Shown here piece after piece: positions 11,605 to 44,493 of a stretch of DNA of 44,493 nt. The stretch comes from a virus: the IMG/VR virus record IMGVR_UViG_3300050016_000032, positions 1 to 44,493 of that record; one strand, given 5' to 3'. The translations under genes were made by a program, and so were the position numbers. Each line of letters opens with the position of its first letter. Position 1 is the stretch's first letter. The notes under the pieces are model-generated. The model made no database searches, was not told where the DNA came from, and worked only from the letters and a program-made list of their open reading frames with translations.

Positions 11605-13440
11605 TTGGTCCAAGTAGTTTCCTATTTCAATGGTTTTGAAACCGGTGACGGGAGTGAATTAAATTCACTCGGCGCGGGTAATTCTGTTGTCACGTCCCCG
11701 GTGCGATCGGGCGCGTATTCGCTGCATAGCCCCGTTTCCGGCACTGGTACGATTTTTGTTGCTGGGCTCGGGGCAATACAGAACGCTGGATGCGCCTATT
11801 TCTATTTCACCACTCTGCCGAGTGGTAGTCCAAACGTCATTATCGAAGCGCCAGTTTCTGGCACCGCTCGATTTACTATCGGGTATTTTACGACCACGGG
11901 CACGCTAGATGTGTTTGACAACGGGGCTACTTTAGGCCTCACGAGTACAGCAGGTCTTACTGTTCTTCAGACCAACACATGGTATCGTATTGAGTGGGTA
12001 CTTGATCTCGCGGCCGGGGGTGCTGTTAAACTTTGGTTGAATGGTCACCTGGAAATCGGTATCACTCACACGTCTGATGTGTCTGTTTCGCCAACGGACC
12101 AGTATAGGACAGGAAATCTCACTCCAGGAAACTCGTCGCTGTGGTATTTTGATGATTTTCGCGTCGACACGGGCGGTTTAAACCCAATCGGAAATCATGT
12201 AGTTCAGAGATTTCAGGGCGCCGCAGGAACGCCGAGTTTTGACGCCTGGGCGAAGAACGGGGCGGCTACATCTGCGCTGTGTTGGTCGGATACGCCGTTT
12301 AACGCGGGGACGAATTGCAGCGACACTTCGTTGTCAGCGTATCAGACTATGAAAATACGCTCTCCCACCAACTTTGTCTTGCCAGAAGATGTTGTTAATG
12401 CGTGTAAGGTGGGTTTGGTCGGAAATTCAAATCTTACCGCAGCGGGTGCCGGCGCGTTCTTTGTGAGTTACTACGATGGGTCGGTAAAGACCGACACCGC
12501 CAACACCTTCACAACGGTTGACGCGTATTACCAGTCTTCAATTTTTACTGATACACTCGCCAACTTGATAAATTATGAGATTGGTGCTGGGCATGGGGTT
12601 ACGGCTGCGACCCACACGGTTGAAGACGTGTGGTTGATGGTCGACTTCACGCCGAGCGCAGGCGAGACTTCAATTGGCCGGTCGCCAGTTTGGGAGTTTT
12701 CCCCGAACGCAGGCCCGACAAAACATCTTCGGCCGACACGAGCGTATCCGCGGCTCCCGTACATCTTCACACTCGCCGCATCTTCGGGGGCGTATGCACT
12801 TTCCGGGGTCACGATCAGCAACACGATCGCGCGCATCGTCTCCGCAATCACCGGGGTTTACACCTTGACCGGGGTTGCGGCGGCGCTGGTTTGGAACCAT
12901 GTTCTCACCGCAGTCAAAGGTGCCTACGTCCTCACCGGAATTTCGTCTGGCCTCAGTGCGGTTCGCAAACTGACAGCGGTCACAGGCGCCTACGTTCTGA
13001 CTGGTGTGGCCGCAACACTCATGCACGGATACGTCCTTGCTGCGGTCAAAGGCGCGTACACACTCACCGGGGTTGCCATTACGAACAAGATCACGCGCAT
13101 CGTCACTGCGGTCACAGGCGCCTACGTTCTGACTGGTGTGGCCGCAAAACTCATGCACGGATACGTCCTTGCTGCGGTCAAAGGCGCGTACACACTCACC
13201 GGGCGCACGGCGGCGCTCTCGGCCATCCGCACAATGGCGATGGCGACGGGCGTCTACATTCTCACCGGAAACGCCACGATTTTGGCGGTTCTGCATCAGG
13301 TCAGTCTGTTCCTCAAGCGCCGTTTCGTGGCCCCGACATTGCAACTCATTCGCGATGTCACCCCTTCCCTAACCTTGCGACGTAGTGTATCACCGAAACT
13401 GACCAAACTCCGCGACCGCGATCCATCTTTGGGGGACTGA
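11605..13440 (+). CDS. Fibre/spike-like structural protein with C-terminal 22-residue repeats
   Basis: 611 aa with a TTG start. The N-terminal ~370 aa are beta-rich and visibly lower in GC. Eight G-x-Y-x-L-T/S-G-centred 22-aa repeats follow, then short xPxLxLxR repeats. Confidence 0.65.
   Translation: MVQVVSYFNGFETGDGSELNSLGAGNSVVTSPVRSGAYSLHSPVSGTGTIFVAGLGAIQNAGCAYFYFTTLPSGSPNVIIEAPVSGTARFTIGYFTTTGTLDVFDNGATLGLTSTAGLTVLQTNTWYRIEWVLDLAAGGAVKLWLNGHLEIGITHTSDVSVSPTDQYRTGNLTPGNSSLWYFDDFRVDTGGLNPIGNHVVQRFQGAAGTPSFDAWAKNGAATSALCWSDTPFNAGTNCSDTSLSAYQTMKIRSPTNFVLPEDVVNACKVGLVGNSNLTAAGAGAFFVSYYDGSVKTDTANTFTTVDAYYQSSIFTDTLANLINYEIGAGHGVTAATHTVEDVWLMVDFTPSAGETSIGRSPVWEFSPNAGPTKHLRPTRAYPRLPYIFTLAASSGAYALSGVTISNTIARIVSAITGVYTLTGVAAALVWNHVLTAVKGAYVLTGISSGLSAVRKLTAVTGAYVLTGVAATLMHGYVLAAVKGAYTLTGVAITNKITRIVTAVTGAYVLTGVAAKLMHGYVLAAVKGAYTLTGRTAALSAIRTMAMATGVYILTGNATILAVLHQVSLFLKRRFVAPTLQLIRDVTPSLTLRRSVSPKLTKLRDRDPSLGD
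12781..13295 (+). repeat. In-frame 66-nt (22-aa) repeat array, ~8 units, including a 96-nt segment duplicated at a 132-nt offset
   Basis: Units such as TGAYVLTGVAATLMHGYVLAAV and KGAYTLTGVAITNKITRIVTAV. Nt 12976-13071 and 13108-13203 differ at one position (95/96). Confidence 0.9.
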
Positions 13441-36428: not shown

Positions 36429-38240
36429 TTGGCCTACGCCGAGGCCAGCATTCCTGTCTTTCCCTGCATCGCTGGCGGTAAGGCGCCAGCCACCGCACAC
36501 GGGTTTCAGGACGCTACCACCTCGATCGAGCAGATTGACGCCTGGTGGGGCGAGGCGGATTACAACCTCGCTCTCTGCCCCGAGAACGCGGGCTGGTGCG
36601 TCATCGACCTGGACCCGGACTGCGACGATCTCGATGTTCCCGACACATACGAAGTCAAGACCCCGCGCGGCGCCCATCTCTATTTCAAGGGCTCACTCCC
36701 ACCGACAACCGGCAAACTGGGCGAGCATATCGACACCCGCGGCGTCGGTTCCTATGTTCTGGTGCCGCCCTCGATCGTCGATGGAAAAACTTACGAGGTA
36801 TTGCATGACCGAGACATCGCAGAACTCCCAGCTTGGGTTGCTGAACGAGTTCGAAGATCGGATGAACAACATGGCAGCTCTGTGTCACAACCTGATCTTG
36901 GAACAGCACGTGCTCGCGCGCGAAGCCACCTGGCTAGTCTCGTACAGCGAGGCGATGTTGCAATCGATGGACGAGGCGGGGATACGCGAACTTTCCAACT
37001 TGCTTGCGAACTACTTAACCTGGGCGTCTCATCGGAGACTGCTCGGGAACTGTTAGAGGAAATATGGAACCCGCACTGCCTGCCGCCGTGGACTTCGGAC
37101 GAGCTGGCGGTTAAGGTTGATAACGCCGTCCGGTACGCGCAAAACGAACCGGGCGCGTGGGGTGTTGAGCCGGCAGAGACAACCTTCCGCGGTGCTCTCG
37201 ACAAGCTGGCGAAGGAAAAAAACTCGCCGGCTCAACGTTCCCGCTTTCACGCTGAAGACGAAACCGAACAGGAAGAAGGCAAAGACCCGTCATGGCTGAT
37301 AAAGGATTTGTTTCCCGAACTATCCACCATCCTGACGGTAGGACAGAGCGGATCCTACAAATCCTTTCTGATGCTGGATTTGGCGCTGTGTTTAGCAACG
37401 GGAAAATCGTGGTGCGGAAGCCAGCCATTGCAGATGGGACCAGTGTTCTATGCGGCGTCAGAAGGTCGGCACTCGCTGAAGAAGGCACGGCGTCGAGCCT
37501 GGAAGATCGCCAAAGAGTTCGATGGTGGGATACCTGACTTCTTCGTGATGCCGACGCCGATCGTGGCCTACCCGGAAGACTGCCAGGAGTTCGGCGACGA
37601 GATCGCCCGTCGCTGCGGTGACGACCGCAAGCCCGCCATCATCTTTCTGGACACCGTGGCGAAGTGCATGGCCGGGCTCAACGAGAACGACGCAGGCGAT
37701 GCCGGCCGCTTCGTCAAATTCTGTGATAGCCTTGTGGATGCCTTCGGCTGCTCCGTGGTGGCCGTGCATCACCAGTCGGACAAGGACGGGGCCAGCGTCG
37801 TGCGCGGCTCGTCAGCTCTACGCGCTGGCTTCGACAGCCTGATCCACGTCAAGGCTCATCGCGCCACCAAGGCCGTCGAGATGCGCGTATTGCAGCACAA
37901 GGACGCTGACGAGCCCGAACACCCGTGGACGTTCCAAGGCAAAGCGGTGGGGCCGTCGCTGGTATTCCAGCCAACCACACCCGACGAGCACCGGGCGCTG
38001 ACCGGCGAGGCTACCGGGCTCGATCGGAAATCAGTCGGCGCCATGCTGAAATCGTTGAACGCGATCGGGCCGAGCAATGCCGTGACCACGCATGTCCTGG
38101 CGATGTCGCTGGTGCCGGCCGGGTCGAGTGACGACCTAATTAAGACGATGACACGGAGCCTGACGACGCTCGGCCGCGGGAAACTGGAAGCCTACTGCCA
38201 GCGCCTTGGCCGCGACCTGGCCTGGTCACTACCCGCCTAG
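36429..38240 (+). CDS. Bifunctional primase-polymerase (Prim-Pol) fused to a RecA/DnaB-like (AAA_25-type) helicase domain
   Basis: Prim-Pol motifs VIDLDPD, GAHLYFK, IDTRGVGSYVLVPPS. Walker A GQSGSYKS, Walker B AIIFLDTV. The start is uncertain: the frame is open from 36351 and TTG 36429 is the first canonical start. Confidence 0.85.
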   Translation: MAYAEASIPVFPCIAGGKAPATAHGFQDATTSIEQIDAWWGEADYNLALCPENAGWCVIDLDPDCDDLDVPDTYEVKTPRGAHLYFKGSLPPTTGKLGEHIDTRGVGSYVLVPPSIVDGKTYEVLHDRDIAELPAWVAERVRRSDEQHGSSVSQPDLGTARARARSHLASLVQRGDVAIDGRGGDTRTFQLACELLNLGVSSETARELLEEIWNPHCLPPWTSDELAVKVDNAVRYAQNEPGAWGVEPAETTFRGALDKLAKEKNSPAQRSRFHAEDETEQEEGKDPSWLIKDLFPELSTILTVGQSGSYKSFLMLDLALCLATGKSWCGSQPLQMGPVFYAASEGRHSLKKARRRAWKIAKEFDGGIPDFFVMPTPIVAYPEDCQEFGDEIARRCGDDRKPAIIFLDTVAKCMAGLNENDAGDAGRFVKFCDSLVDAFGCSVVAVHHQSDKDGASVVRGSSALRAGFDSLIHVKAHRATKAVEMRVLQHKDADEPEHPWTFQGKAVGPSLVFQPTTPDEHRALTGEATGLDRKSVGAMLKSLNAIGPSNAVTTHVLAMSLVPAGSSDDLIKTMTRSLTTLGRGKLEAYCQRLGRDLAWSLPA

Positions 38241-39600: not shown

Positions 39601-39896
39601 GTTGCGACCGGGAAAATGATGCCAACGGTCTGACCGGAATGCGAGGCGATGCGCGCGAGCGCGTCATTCGCCACAGTCGTTGCATCCTCCAGGCCGCGGG
39701 CAAGGTGAAGTTTCATGCGACCATAAGCAAAGGGGTCGCTGTGGTGCGCAGAGGCGTGCAGGCGAGCTGCGCGTTCGTCCAGTACCTTGTTGCGCGGCGC
39801 CACACGATAGGCGTCAGACATGCCTTGCAGGTCCGCCTTCCAGCGACGATCGAGCAAGCCGAGCAATTCCGATGGACCTTGCGGCAGATTGGTCAA
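39597..39896 (-). CDS. Hypothetical early protein (99 aa)
   Basis: TTG start overlapping the upstream TGA. Confidence 0.5.
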   Translation of the reverse strand: MTNLPQGPSELLGLLDRRWKADLQGMSDAYRVAPRNKVLDERAARLHASAHHSDPFAYGRMKLHLARGLEDATTVANDALARIASHSGQTVGIIFPVAT

Positions 39897-40138
39897 TTCC
39901 GTTCCTCCGCATCATGCATGAAGGCCGGCACCGGATTGCCCGGCTTCCACGGTTCCTGATACGTCGTCTGCGTCCGCAAACCCCGCGGAGCGGGTTTAGC
40001 CGCCGGCAGTTCCAGACGCCAGATGCGGCCAATGACGGAATTGCGCGTGCGATGCAGGTGGTCCCCAATCGCACGCCGGCTCATCTTGCGATGATTGTCC
40101 ACCAAAAATTTGTCGTCTTCCTCTGTCCATTTTTTCAC
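39893..40138 (-). CDS. GcrA-like cell-cycle regulator homologue (N-terminal DNA-binding domain type)
   Basis: KKWTEEDDKFLVDNHRKMSRRAIGDHLHRTRNSVIGRIWRLEL parallels GcrA W(T/S)xE...L...G.S...IA..LG.(S/T)RNAVIGK.HRLGL. GTG start overlapping the upstream TGA. Confidence 0.7.
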   Translation of the reverse strand: MKKWTEEDDKFLVDNHRKMSRRAIGDHLHRTRNSVIGRIWRLELPAAKPAPRGLRTQTTYQEPWKPGNPVPAFMHDAEERN

Positions 40139-40527
40139 AGCGATTTTCCTTTTGTGAAATGCAAAGCCTCGGGCAACTTGCGTTCATCCGCCACGATCCA
40201 GGCCGACAGACACGCAAACATTTCGATACGATCGGCGTCACTCAGGCCAATGTCATCGGCGAGCAACGAAAACGAATGTGTGAGAGCATCGACGTGGCCG
40301 ACGCGAACGAATGTCTTTTCCCAGTCTTCCGTCGAGGGGTCTTTACGAAAACCCGTTACCACGGAACCATCCTTTGCGATCTTGGCACGATCGGCAAGTT
40401 GGCTAGGCCAGTTGCGCAAGGGCTTGATCGCGAGAATGATTGAACCGCTTAGCGTGGTGTTGCCTTTGGTGACAACCAGCGCACGGTATTGCCAGCTCGC
40501 GGTCTGTGCTTCCCGGTCAATAATCAT
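40135..40527 (-). CDS. Hypothetical early protein (130 aa)
   Basis: ORF 40135..40698 trimmed to the ATG at 40527, because the upstream part overlaps the neighbouring gene. Confidence 0.55.
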   Translation of the reverse strand: MIIDREAQTASWQYRALVVTKGNTTLSGSIILAIKPLRNWPSQLADRAKIAKDGSVVTGFRKDPSTEDWEKTFVRVGHVDALTHSFSLLADDIGLSDADRIEMFACLSAWIVADERKLPEALHFTKGKSL

Positions 40528-40708
40528 TGCCGCCCTCCACATAGGCCCGCCAGGCGCTCGCATCGTGATCCGGGTCGCCGGCATGGGGATTGTAGTCGAA
40601 TGCCTCGCCGTGTTGCGTGGCCTTGCGGCGCTCGGCAAGGCGGCGTTCCACGCCACGCTGCCAGCGCGAGGTCTGCAACAGGTCTTCAATCGGATCATCT
40701 CCAGTCAT
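40517..40708 (-). CDS. Hypothetical early protein (63 aa)
   Basis: ATG at 40708 is preceded by AAGGGA. The alternative ATG at 40738 lies inside hairpin element A. Confidence 0.5.
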   Translation of the reverse strand: MTGDDPIEDLLQTSRWQRGVERRLAERRKATQHGEAFDYNPHAGDPDHDASAWRAYVEGGNDY

Positions 40709-40725
40709 CGCGCAATCCCTTTGGG

Positions 40726-40780
40726 GTTTAGCGTTCATTCCTTAGCACGGCCGGTTGACCATGCCAAGGCAGGAAAGCTA
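40726..40780 (-). repeat. Intergenic bipartite hairpin element, family A, copy 3
   Basis: 55 nt identical to 42562-42616. Upper stem 40740-40750 / 40759-40769. In minus-strand sense the element begins with the TAG stop of the upstream gene. Confidence 0.85.
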
Positions 40781-41512
40781 TTCCGTCAGATCAAGCCATG
40801 CGGATCCAGGTGACTTCATTGCAATCAAAATCTGCACGACGCCCTCGGCAAAAATCTCCCGAACTGCATAGGCCGCATAGGCCGCACGAGCCGCATCGGC
40901 CGCATAGGCCGCCTCGGCCGCATTGGCCGCCGCATTGGCCGCCGCATCGGCCGCCGCATCGGCCGCACGGGCCGCATAGGCCGCCGCACGGGCCGCCGCA
41001 CGGGCCGCCGCATAGGCCGCATAGGCCGCACGAGCCGCCGCATCGGCCGCATAGGCCGCACGAGCCGCCGCACGGGCCACCGCATTGGCCGCACGAGCCG
41101 CATAGGCCGCCGCATCGGCCGTTCCTTCGTGTTCGCAACGATCCGCTTCCGAAGTCAAACCCGCCAAACGCAAAGCCGGTGGCAAAATTTTTCGGATCGT
41201 AAATTCTGTGACACGTTTCGTAAACTCTACGTCGTCGAGAGTGTCGGTTCCGAGTTGAGCGATAGCAAGGCGACGCAATCCTTTGGCGCGGGCTTTATCC
41301 GACGACCACGTTTGATCGTTAAGCGTGATTTTCAGGGAACGTACCGCCTGTGAAACGCACTTGGGATTGTCCGAGTGTGGGAGGCCCAACGCATAACATA
41401 CAGCGGCCTCGACACACATTCCACCGGGCTTTTGAGTGCCTAAGCCTTTGACCAGGCCAGCATCGACGGTATCCAAAACTTTCTTTGCGATTTCTCGCGT
41501 CAGCGTTTGCAT
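40778..41512 (-). CDS. Early protein with a globular N-terminal domain and an ~85-residue Ala/Tyr/Arg/Asp/Asn low-complexity repeat
   Basis: ORF trimmed to the ATG at 41512 (SD GGAGAA). The repeat reads [83 protein letters not shown]. This is the only frame joined to non-repetitive N- and C-termini. Confidence 0.65.
40866..41120. repeat. Degenerate 9/12-nt tandem repeat, about 25 units of GCA-yrg-GCC(-GCC) on the + strand
   Basis: Read directly. It leaves long open frames on both strands (track ORFs 40791..41138, 40798..41202, 40825..41115). Confidence 0.9.
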
Positions 41513-41535
41513 TAGTTTTTCTCCAAGTTGAGGCC

Positions 41536-41590
41536 TAGCCCTCATTCCTTGGCATGGCCAACGGGTGCCCATGCCAAGGCAGGAAAGCTA
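41536..41590 (-). repeat. Intergenic bipartite hairpin element, family A, copy 2 (variant)
   Basis: Upper stem ccttggcatgg (41547-41557) / ccatgccaagg (41569-41579) is perfectly complementary. The flanks tcattcc and caggaaagcta are shared with copies 1 and 3. It begins at the TAG stop of gene 41588..41842. Confidence 0.85.
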
Positions 41591-41842
41591 GGCCAGTAAG
41601 GTTTCAATCTCCGTCACCACGTCGGCCGGGATTGTGCGCATCAGCCAAGCGTGGCCGTATCTGTAGGGTTTGCCATTGTGTAGATAGCCCGGATCGGGAT
41701 CGAGCCCGACCGCGGCCAGTGCCGCGCTGGCTTTTTCGTAGTGGCTTTCAGGATAAACCGCCGTGACCGGGTTCAGCCTTAGCCACTCATGTTGCGCGGG
41801 TGAGCCGGCCGTCATGTCGTTAAGGTGCCACTCGCGCCACAA
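41588..41842 (-). CDS. Hypothetical early protein; annotated start (TTG 41842 or ATG 41815) may be truncated
   Basis: The frame stays open upstream to 41989 without any ATG, GTG or TTG. A 170-nt gap precedes it in an otherwise tightly packed operon. Confidence 0.5.
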   Translation of the reverse strand: MWREWHLNDMTAGSPAQHEWLRLNPVTAVYPESHYEKASAALAAVGLDPDPGYLHNGKPYRYGHAWLMRTIPADVVTEIETLLA

Positions 41843-42011
41843 GCGAAGAATGGTTTGCGCCGTCGCGTTGTCGGGAAAATATCCGGCAACGTCCTCAACA
41901 ATCTGCCCGCCGCTAACAATGTCACGCCGCGACGGTTTCCAGATACTGCCACAAACTGAAAATCGCCCGTAATCTTTTTCACTTTTTTCTCATCCCTTCA
42001 GGGTTCGAGGT

Positions 42012-42341
42012 TTAGAACGTAAGAGCTTCCCATTGCTCGCGCGACATGCGGACGACCTCGCCATCGCCATAGCGATACACGATAACGTCGAGGTCGAGCG
42101 CCTTGGCTACGTCCGCGGCAATCTCCTGAATGCCTGGCGCGCCGTTGTCGATGACGGTAAACAGTTTGAACGCTTCATGCACGGTGCGGCCATTGCTATC
42201 AACCGACCATTGCTCGCTGTCGGTCACGTACACGGGCCCGAACGCACCAATCAGCCGATCGGTCAGAGCCTTGCGATAAATCTCCGTAGCCTTGCCGGCC
42301 CGGTCACGCAAGGGTACATAAATTTTGGCTTCACGTAGCAT
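42012..42341 (-). CDS. Hypothetical early protein (109 aa)
   Basis: ORF trimmed to the ATG at 42341 with SD GAGGAAA. Confidence 0.6.
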   Translation of the reverse strand: MLREAKIYVPLRDRAGKATEIYRKALTDRLIGAFGPVYVTDSEQWSVDSNGRTVHEAFKLFTVIDNGAPGIQEIAADVAKALDLDVIVYRYGDGEVVRMSREQWEALTF

Positions 42342-42546
42342 CGGATTGTTTCCTCGGGTTAATGCCAGAAATTGCGAACACGCGAAGGTCTTCCCATAGG
42401 CCAAACGCCGCGAGCCAAGGGGTTTCGAAAATTTCCCCGCGGTTGAATTTTTGCGCCATTGCCTTTTCGTGACTGTTGGCCGCACCGACCAAACGGGCCG
42501 CTTGCGATTGGGTTAACGTGTTCCAGTCGATTGACGCGAGCTGCAT
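42331..42546 (-). CDS. Hypothetical small protein (71 aa), possibly DNA-binding
   Basis: ATG at 42546 lies 5 nt after GGAGAA. The N-terminus WNTLTQSQAARLVGAAN looks helix-turn-helix-like (weak). Confidence 0.5.
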   Translation of the reverse strand: MQLASIDWNTLTQSQAARLVGAANSHEKAMAQKFNRGEIFETPWLAAFGLWEDLRVFAISGINPRKQSDAT

Positions 42547-42561
42547 GAGGTTCTCCAAGGC

Positions 42562-42616
42562 GTTTAGCGTTCATTCCTTAGCACGGCCGGTTGACCATGC
42601 CAAGGCAGGAAAGCTA
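42562..42616 (-). repeat. Intergenic bipartite hairpin element, family A, copy 1
   Basis: 55/55 identical to 40726-40780. Upper stem ccttagcacgg / ccatgccaagg. Confidence 0.85.
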
Positions 42617-42657
42617 AGGTTTGGAGGGCGCTAGAGTGTCCTTCGCCCGTTGATAGG

Positions 42658-42924
42658 CTAAATCAGCCGGCCAATGCCGTCTGCTTTTATCGTGACCGTC
42701 TTTCCGCTAACGTCGAGTTTGACGCGGATACCGCTTGCAAATTCAGGCTGGCAAACATGCCATGGGTTAGTGTCGCGCTTGAAGCGGTCAACATACAGGG
42801 ATTTGCGAACGAAGCGCACTACAGTCCCAAAACGGTCACCCATCATCCAACGATCAAGATGCGGCGCGATCTCAATGCGCGTGCCAACGCTGCAAACCGA
42901 TACGGTGCTAAATGGTCCGAACAT
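42658..42924 (-). CDS. Hypothetical early protein (88 aa)
   Basis: SD GGAGAAA upstream. No family recognised. Confidence 0.55.
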   Translation of the reverse strand: MFGPFSTVSVCSVGTRIEIAPHLDRWMMGDRFGTVVRFVRKSLYVDRFKRDTNPWHVCQPEFASGIRVKLDVSGKTVTIKADGIGRLI

Positions 42925-43009
42925 TTGGTTTCTCCGGTTTTCGGGCTCATTAGAAGCCCCTACAGTCGTTTCGTGGGAGTGTCGGCTAGGTAGGTCACCC
43001 CTCGCTTTT

Positions 43010-43062
43010 GGGCTTAGGCTTCATTGCCGCGCAACGCCACTTGCGCGGTGTATGAAGGCTAA
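43010..43062 (-). repeat. Intergenic bipartite hairpin element, family B, copy 1
   Basis: 53 nt, 51/53 identical to 43535-43587. Inner stem ccgcgcaa / ttgcgcgg. Outer stem aggcttcat / atgaaggct (read on the + strand; one mismatch). It contains the TAG stop of gene 43059..43514. Confidence 0.85.
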
Positions 43063-43514: not shown

Positions 43515-43534
43515 CTGATTTTTCTCCAGTTTTC

Positions 43535-43587
43535 GGGCTTAGGCTTCATTGCCGCGCAACGCTACTCGCGCGGTGTATGAAGGCTAA
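43535..43587 (-). repeat. Intergenic bipartite hairpin element, family B, copy 2
   Basis: See copy 1. It contains the TAG stop of gene 43584..44012 and is followed directly by the next RBS. Confidence 0.85.
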
Positions 43588-44143: not shown

Positions 44144-44394
44144 GGGTAGAACAGGATAATTCGTATTCTGGCCTATCACAGTTGCGTTACCGCGCACCTC
44201 ACCTATGCGTTAAAACGGCTTTGCGTTCCATAATCCCACGCACCTCGTGGCTGGGATTTGCTCGGGTGTGGTAGCCTGTTACCATGGCCTATGATGATCG
44301 TCATAACCCCGCTTTGACAATCGTTCGCAACATTGCTGGCCTATGTGTGCTCATCTTGAGCATATATCGCCGCGCGCTTGCCCATGCGGTCTAC

Positions 44395-44493
44395 CAGGTG
44401 CGATTGATAATCATTCTCAATTTGGATGGTCAGATGAGAATGGTTCGCAACAAAGATACCAGGTGCGATTGATAATCATTCTCAATTTGGATG
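44395..44493. repeat. Terminal redundancy: nt 44395-44493 are identical to nt 1-99 (one full 65-bp unit plus 34 nt)
   Basis: Base-by-base comparison of the two ends. Consistent with a circular or circularly permuted assembly overlap, or a short direct terminal repeat. Confidence 0.95.

Follow-up and report, generated by a model that had tools for sequence, protein, structure and literature searches.

An in-frame hypervariable tandem repeat on an alanine scaffold in a family of phage early proteins

Results

The gene and its product

The DNA analyzed here comprises positions 1 to 44,493 of the IMG/VR virus record IMGVR_UViG_3300050016_000032, a phage genome of ~44.5 kb; this whole stretch of 44,493 nucleotides is referred to as the window. 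On its minus strand, positions 40778-41512 encode the protein of 244 residues that is the subject of this study. According to the list of open reading frames (ORFs) and the translation, the coding sequence is complete, running from an ATG at 41512 to a TAG stop codon at 40780-40778. The Shine-Dalgarno sequence GGAG (41521..41524, minus strand) lies 8 nt 5' of the ATG, within a leader that recurs before several early genes (repeat family D6). Because an alternative in-frame ATG further upstream, at 41572, sits in a hairpin and the homologues begin in the alignment at the position equivalent to MQTLTREIA, the start was assigned to 41512.

The protein is built from a non-repetitive N-domain (residues 1 to ~130), an array of ~85 residues of the general form (Ala)1-4-X, and a short C-terminal segment predicted to be helical. 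A previous reading of the DNA letters without database searches, here called the sequence-only reading, had proposed a domain followed by a repeat, and this anatomy was borne out as described; at least 1413 homologues retrieved in a word-indexed search share the architecture. The 120 homologues that were listed individually, on which the family-wide array statistics below are based, range in length from 211 to 332 residues, lack Pfam domains, and have no informative name.

Across the array, five of the six reading frames are free of stop codons, and for this reason long shadow ORFs run on both strands, as the sequence-only reading had correctly pointed out. With so many open frames, the repeat could be conceived as a non-coding element acting at the DNA level, or as an assembly artefact, with the 244-residue ORF being fortuitous. 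However, the N- and C-terminal segments are joined in the alanine frame in 118 of the 120 homologues whatever the length of the array, a good ribosome-binding site is present, and an independent assembly, a Logan contig that matches window positions 40751-42591 with 100% identity, contains the identical gene and hence the identical protein. The family comparison effectively refutes a non-protein origin, which is left with almost no probability. Since the conserved C-terminal motif follows in frame after arrays of every length in those 118 homologues, the alanine frame is the frame that has been maintained in evolution. The ORF at 40778-41512 is a real gene for a phage accessory protein of a large, phage-restricted family, and the protein is cytoplasmic.

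The alanine array

The tandem array occupies positions 40862..41121 on the minus strand and corresponds to residues ~133-217. It consists of ~25 units of 9 or 12 nt with the pattern GCC-NNT-GCG(-GCC), encoding mainly (Ala)2-3-X, where X is Tyr, Arg, Asp, Asn, or Glu. Tandem Repeats Finder delimited the array to 40866-41121 and reported periods of 9, 12, 21, 42, and 54 nt with scores of up to 212, and a repeat search showed 18 in-register copies at spacings of 9 or 12 nt. Residues 132-217 comprise 59 alanines and 27 guest residues (eight Tyr, eight Arg, five Asp, three Asn, two Val, and one Glu). Every Tyr, Arg, Asp, and Asn guest, i.e. 24 of the 27, is encoded by a codon ending in T (TAT, CGT, GAT, or AAT).

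The distance from one guest to the next is most often three (14 cases) or four residues (nine cases), with a few distances of one or two. In a periodicity analysis, the spectral power at 3.5-3.6 residues was 1.6, compared with 0.35 +/- 0.24 in 300 shuffled sequences, none of which reached the observed value (z=5.2). The helical stripe in the window protein is therefore real. It is not perfectly straight, as it drifts because of runs with 3-3-3 spacing, and the array also has power at periods of 2.0 and 3.0. The spectrum summed over the arrays of the 120 homologues peaks at 3.5 residues.

Long alanine-rich helices with periodic polar guests are also found in type I antifreeze proteins and in antiparallel coiled coils of the Alacoil type. 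Type I antifreeze proteins are alanine-rich amphipathic helices with an 11-residue period, in contrast to the period of ~3.5 residues found here, and there is no match in sequence or fold, so that the likeness is a physical one only.

Conserved N-domain and C-terminal segment

The segments on both sides of the array are conserved. The N-domain (residues 1-130; 41123..41512, minus strand) and the C-terminal segment (residues 218-244, 27 residues plus the stop codon; 40778..40861, minus strand) were analyzed in conservation alignments of 32 and 97 members (A1/A2), in which the array region itself does not align from one member to the next. In both alignments, G19, L20, G25, G30, C33, E35, A36, A37, C39, H46, D48, C52, V53, R58, N65, D66, W69, R75, G78, Q86, L87, G88, and F97 are invariant, and K61 and C126 are near-invariant (at least 90%). 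The C-terminal segment carries the motif RD..L..FAE.VVQILI.MK.PG..WL.L., which is the motif found in frame in the 118 homologues mentioned above.

The three cysteine residues that the sequence-only reading had counted near the N terminus are C33, C39, and C52; C126 and H46, which are likewise conserved, had been missed. Because five conserved cysteine and histidine residues occur in a cytoplasmic protein, C33, C39, H46, C52, and C126 may form a metal site of the type Cys3-His(+Cys).

A full-length AlphaFold2 model built with 32 sequences is all-alpha, with a predicted local distance difference test (pLDDT) score of 72 and a predicted template modeling (pTM) score of 0.73. Confidence is high (pLDDT 92-97) for the N-domain and for the last 30 residues, the latter being predicted as a helix that might pack back on the N-domain. 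When the N-domain was modeled alone with 97 sequences, it was again predicted to be all-alpha with a pLDDT of 93.4. Foldseek searches against the Protein Data Bank (PDB) returned no match for either the full-length or the N-domain model (best E values 3.8 and 7.7), and the noise matches to the full-length model were designed helical repeats and coiled coils. Sequence and profile searches of the PDB, the former with one protein, gave only alanine-rich noise, whereas a fold search of BFVD retrieved only members of the family itself, the top one being A0A067XQQ9 with 46% identity. On this evidence, the predicted domain appears to have no solved structural relative.

Variation of the array among relatives

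The array ranges from 37 to 141 residues in the 120 proteins, with a median of 76. Its composition over the same set is 61% Ala, 8.7% Tyr, 7.9% Asp, 3.7% Arg, 3.5% Asn, 3.5% Ser, 1.5% Gly, and 0.2% Pro. Thus, the array is always present, in frame, and compatible with a helix, and its sequence is free.

The most direct evidence for its variability comes from nearly identical phages. Loci L011 and L017 differ by an in-frame indel of 78 bp (26 residues) in the array, and L049 differs from L047, L050, L052, L053, and L054 by one of 96 bp; in both comparisons the gene shows no other mismatch, and the identity of the 1.5-kb flanks is 100%. A comparison at the protein level used ten pairs with N-cores at least 97% identical and C-cores identical. 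Nine of these differ in the array, seven of them in its length, by between 1 and 52 residues, and the pair P0029/P0040 is among those with largely rewritten arrays. The proposal of the sequence-only reading that the array is a substrate for slippage was in this way confirmed in relatives. For the window phage itself, a 26-mer beside the array gave no match in IMG/VR and JGI metagenome contigs, and the sole near-identical sequence is the Logan contig, 1.8 kb long and identical to the window.

A recognizable tandem DNA array was detected by Tandem Repeats Finder in 73 of 76 non-redundant complete genes of the family. The period is a multiple of three in 219 of the 221 rows reported, mostly 6, 9, or 12, and the units are specific to the lineage, for example CGCCTC, GATGCTGCT, and GCCGCCGCCAACGCCGCCTAC. 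That repetition at the DNA level persists in nearly every lineage implies ongoing slippage or unequal recombination and not an ancient, decaying repeat. Among the contigs with a family gene, 24 of 110 stop inside the gene, mostly within the array (L015, L016, L020, L024-L026, L028, L031, L037, and others), which is consistent with assembly graphs breaking at this point.

In-frame variable-number tandem repeats, or contingency-type loci, occur in bacterial surface and virulence proteins. The family shares with them units that are multiples of three, variation by slippage or unequal recombination, and length polymorphism between otherwise identical genomes. It differs in that the protein is a cytoplasmic phage early protein, and in that the units are very short (6-12 nt) and form a near-homopolymeric alanine scaffold with single guests, unlike the repeats in surface proteins. 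The locus can be classed among the in-frame hypervariable tandem repeats, with a phage early protein as its product and an alanine scaffold of unusual design.

A hypervariable segment in an otherwise conserved phage protein is also seen in the variable proteins of diversity-generating retroelements (DGRs), and the array might be regarded as the target of a DGR or of another form of templated mutagenesis. The 24 guest codons of the window protein that read NNT superficially resemble the outcome of AAY-to-NNY diversification. A DGR is recognized by a nearby reverse transcriptase and by a template repeat that shares ~90% identity with the variable one. A BLAST search with the array against the whole window yielded only chance matches of 11-12 nt outside the array, Tandem Repeats Finder found no other tandem array resembling it, and no reverse transcriptase was seen among those of the window ORFs that were scanned. 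Furthermore, DGR variation consists of adenine-specific substitutions, whereas variation in the family is largely in length and arises by slippage, and the guests Trp, Glu, and Lys cannot be encoded by NNY. Lacking a template copy in the window, templated mutagenesis is effectively refuted and carries a negligible probability.

Another explanation starts from the composition of the array, which could serve as a decoy or mimic of an alanine-rich host peptide, either an ssrA-type degradation tag that titrates an adaptor or protease, or another low-complexity segment of the host. The ssrA tag of Escherichia coli is AANDENYALAA, and the alphabet of Ala, Asn, Asp, Glu, and Tyr in the array resembles such tags in composition only; the early position of the gene would also be compatible. 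However, the protein ends in the conserved WL.LTE and not in an Ala-Ala carboxy terminus, many members have arrays with Ser/Tyr, His/Thr, or Trp/Glu/Arg guests that are unlike the tag, and no specific motif is conserved within the arrays. A decoy function is accordingly considered very improbable.

Family size, distribution, and searches for known relatives

In an exhaustive phmmer search with the N-domain as query, 1789 clusters at 50% identity were found with E<=1e-3, 1230 of them with E<=1e-10. In the best 150 of the 1789 clusters the domain invariably occupies the N-terminal part of the protein, whose length is 117-337 residues. IMG/VR contains 245 loci with a family gene. By comparison, only 28 loci were found in 185,579 species genomes, mostly on phage-sized contigs in metagenome bins, and these bins are often alphaproteobacterial (Hyphomicrobium, Bosea, Bradyrhizobium, Devosia, Afipia, Reyranella, and Pseudolabrys). 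A few loci are part of long chromosomal contigs, and the two that were examined resemble prophage early regions. In Devosia algicola the family gene is located between a gene for a CI-like repressor and genes for an exonuclease, RecT, and NinB, and in a 4.7-Mb contig of Actinomycetota it is located between genes for a methyltransferase and a helicase.

The protein search identified a single carrier in 50,697 isolate phage records, Caulobacter phage Cr30, in which the homologue is gp001 (YP_009098759.1, hypothetical protein); no match was obtained when window positions 40000-43000 served as a DNA query against the phage collection. Cr30 gp001 has the same architecture as the window protein, with an array of Tyr/Asp/Arg and Ala and a tail of the form FAEN...ILIEM...L, and the N-domains are 64% identical. 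The arrays differ, as do the genomes, that of Cr30 being 156 kb long compared with the podovirus-type genome of ~44.5 kb in the window. Cr30 is described in the literature as T4-like, so that the carriers include a podovirus-type genome, a T4-like phage, and prophages. The match to Cr30 names no function.

Profile searches did not connect the protein to any characterized family. A Pfam-A hmmscan gave no family at E<=10, PADLOC gave none at E<=1, and NCBIfam returned no informative match, only alanine-rich noise. The PHROGs matches all had E>=0.08 and were to families of unknown function, the closest being phrog_3416 (E=0.083). Consequently no known defence or anti-defence family was identified by profile, with the limit that the libraries used did not include one dedicated to anti-defence proteins. 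A literature search on alanine-rich hypervariable phage early proteins, Cr30, and Imm5 retrieved no description of this family. As a whole, the family is large, restricted to phages, and uncharacterized, and its core domain is without known relatives.

The sequence-only reading had pointed to similar alanine-rich repeats in putative immunity or antitoxin proteins, and for this link no support was obtained, as the protein matched nothing in Pfam (including the Imm families, E<=10), PADLOC, NCBIfam, or the PDB. The proteins meant are likely Imm5 and the Imm-5-like proteins, which are predicted to confer immunity in polymorphic toxin systems (Zhang et al. 2012, PMC3482391). An all-alpha, alanine-rich character would be common to both, but the family differs from Imm5 in having no Pfam match, and the Pfam column is empty for all 120 homologues listed. 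A polymorphic toxin or polyimmunity context was not apparent either, with no toxin domains among the neighbours in ~100 loci.

Hairpin elements flanking the gene

The gene is bracketed by two copies of a long imperfect hairpin, termed type A. One is located in the 5' leader of its mRNA (41532..41594, minus strand; three element copies) with a folding free energy (dG) of -47 kcal/mol and z=-5.7. The second (40723..40780, minus strand) overlaps the stop codon and continues just 3' of the gene; it has a dG of -32 kcal/mol and z=-4.9 and is 98% identical to a third copy at 42559-42616. The type A elements thus span dG values from -32 to -47 kcal/mol and z from -4.9 to -5.7. Two further intergenic hairpin elements, termed type B, are present at 43006-43062 and 43531-43587.

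The hairpins fold only in the minus-strand, mRNA-sense RNA, and at 40723-40780 the G-U pairs exist in the minus-strand RNA only. Their stems have symmetric internal loops and lack a U-tract, and the conserved GGAG leader follows most copies. RNase III processing sites of the T7 type, and cassette borders consisting of a promoter and a stem-loop in T4-type phages, have been described, and by analogy the hairpins could resemble either. The Logan contig ends exactly in two of these hairpins. A reading of the intergenic hairpins as sigma-54 promoter sites was dropped, as the spacing was wrong on inspection by eye.

Genome context

The plus strand of the window encodes the terminase, a portal or head-tail adaptor protein, the major head protein, and the tail genes. 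The genes for DNA polymerase, helicase, and exonucleases are on the minus strand, and beyond them, at 38-44 kb, lies a block of small ORFans that contains the gene for the 244-residue protein. The same gene order, with a homologue in the same place, is found in a ~45-kb contig from a Reyranella bin. A primase-helicase gene (36429-38240) lies on the plus strand, opposite to all surrounding early and replication genes, and the Reyranella-bin contig just mentioned shares this inversion (L003, 9452-11347).

A sigma-70-like promoter, TTTACA-17 nt-TATTAT with an upstream TG, is located at 44143-44115 on the minus strand with 10 of 12 matches and points into the ORFan block. It is likely an early promoter for the host RNA polymerase. 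By analogy with other podoviruses, the gene for the 244-residue protein would be about the sixth of an apparent early operon.

Across the family loci, a Pfam scan of 291 flanking ORFs showed HTH proteins of the Cro/CI type and Dam or D12 methyltransferases upstream, and ERF, YqaJ, Gp157, and the MT-A70 methyltransferase downstream. One pentapeptide-repeat protein was found on either side, and the neighbours were otherwise mostly ORFans. The accessory part of early operons usually houses takeover and anti-defence genes. The promoter, the Cro/CI regulators, the methyltransferases, and the RecT, ERF, and YqaJ neighbours fit the early, accessory placement assumed in the sequence-only reading; such a placement does not identify a target.

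Several other features of the window were observed. An exact 65-bp tandem repeat (unit CAGGTGCGATTGATAATCATTC...) is present at both ends of the window, at 1-127 and 44392-44493. Because the repeat is found at both ends and these overlap, the contig is joined to itself by ~3 tandem copies of the unit. The copies lie in a non-coding region upstream of the early genes and may represent a terminal repeat, an origin, or an iteron-like region. Just upstream of the gene, an 84-residue ORF (41588-41842, minus strand) resembles Cas1 profiles of PADLOC over a short stretch of ~28 residues (best E=3e-4), a match that recurs across eight Cas1 models and is probably due to chance. Further along the early block, an 81-residue protein (39893-40138, minus strand) matches the phage transcriptional-regulator families phrog_323 (E=1e-9) and phrog_14101. 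To our eye its N terminus, MKKWTEEDDKFL...SVIGRIWRL, looks like GcrA, a resemblance that would be consistent with an alphaproteobacterial host. Finally, a 66-bp unit is repeated 3.3 times at 12976-13191 (66% matches, Tandem Repeats Finder score 226) in the structural-region ORF 11605-13440 on the plus strand, where it would encode a 22-residue protein repeat.

Discussion

The best overall explanation for these data is a conserved core combined with an alanine-helical contact or evasion surface that is diversified by slippage, a reading to which we give somewhat less than even credence. In this explanation, slipped-strand mispairing or unequal recombination would keep rewriting the array in frame, and because the units are multiples of three, the frame and the C-terminal helix would never be lost. 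The array would pack through its alanines into a helical hairpin or bundle that protrudes from the core, to which the N-domain and the C-terminal helix both contribute, and in the window phage it would expose Tyr, Arg, Asp, and Asn as a stripe recurring every ~3.5 residues. The core, possibly metal-binding through C33, C39, H46, C52, and C126, would carry the constant function. As to the role of the array, we infer, with more doubt than belief, that the protein may be made early and bind a host or defence component, and that the array may be a rapidly diversifying contact surface, or one that evades a sensor, in an arms race.

A number of observations weigh against this explanation. The helical stripe announced by the sequence-only reading stands for the window protein and fails as a rule for the family: the stripe of 3.5 residues has z>2 in only 44 of the 120 arrays and z<0 in 38, and arrays with a period of two are common (ASASAY, ANANAN, AYAYAY, ADADAD). 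A stripe that is missing in many members suits a role at the level of composition, such as that of a spacer, equally well as a specific binding surface. The array is modeled as four helices with low confidence (pLDDT 35-53), so that the model does not establish a hairpin-like or bundle-like geometry, nor that the C-terminal helix packs on the core. The metal site is deduced from conservation only, and length differences between short-read assemblies can be artefacts of repeat collapse. There is no conserved partner gene, the most frequent neighbour cluster being found at 9 of ~110 loci, and neither experiment nor homology links the protein to any defence system or host target.

The main competitor, judged almost equally likely, is that the array is an alanine-rich helical spacer or oligomerization element, for example a coiled coil or a stalk of the Alacoil type, which drifts in a nearly neutral manner without any arms race. 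The drift would follow from the ease with which GCN-rich units of 6, 9, or 12 nt slip. Several of the results are what a spacer would be expected to give. Only the composition is conserved, with 61% Ala and very few Pro or Gly; the guests range in chemistry from acidic and basic to Ser/Tyr and Asn only; the indels of 1, 3, 4, 7, 26, 28, 32, and 52 residues are not quantized; the periodicity is missing in a third of the members; and the noise in the fold searches consisted of designed helical repeats and coiled coils. On the other hand, lineage-specific tandem arrays survive at the DNA level in 73 of 76 lineages, which points to continual turnover rather than decay, and near-identical phages differ mainly in the array, as in contingency loci, although neither the turnover nor the contingency-like pattern excludes neutrality.

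The reading of the array as a diversified surface can be extended to the family as a whole. Its carriers are unrelated phages whose hosts appear to be mainly Alphaproteobacteria, and the residue types Tyr, Asp, Asn, Arg, and Ser are those that dominate minimalist binding interfaces. It is a speculative and rather unlikely proposition, yet one worth stating, that the family represents hypervariability without a retroelement: an alanine helix, continuously rewritten by in-frame slippage of units of 6-12 nt, would present changing stripes of Tyr, Asp, Asn, Arg, and Ser on a possibly metal-binding domain of novel fold, and many unrelated phages would use it to bind or evade fast-evolving defence proteins.

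Should the function prove to be an ordinary one, the family would still clearly deserve a domain definition of its own, as it has thousands of members (1789 clusters at 50% identity) and no Pfam model. The array also matters for viromics, as it breaks metagenomic assemblies (24 of 110 contigs) and the locus requires long reads. If the array is a selected surface driven by slippage, phages would possess a simple means of protein diversification that is free of retroelements, and the family would be a new candidate for anti-defence or host takeover.

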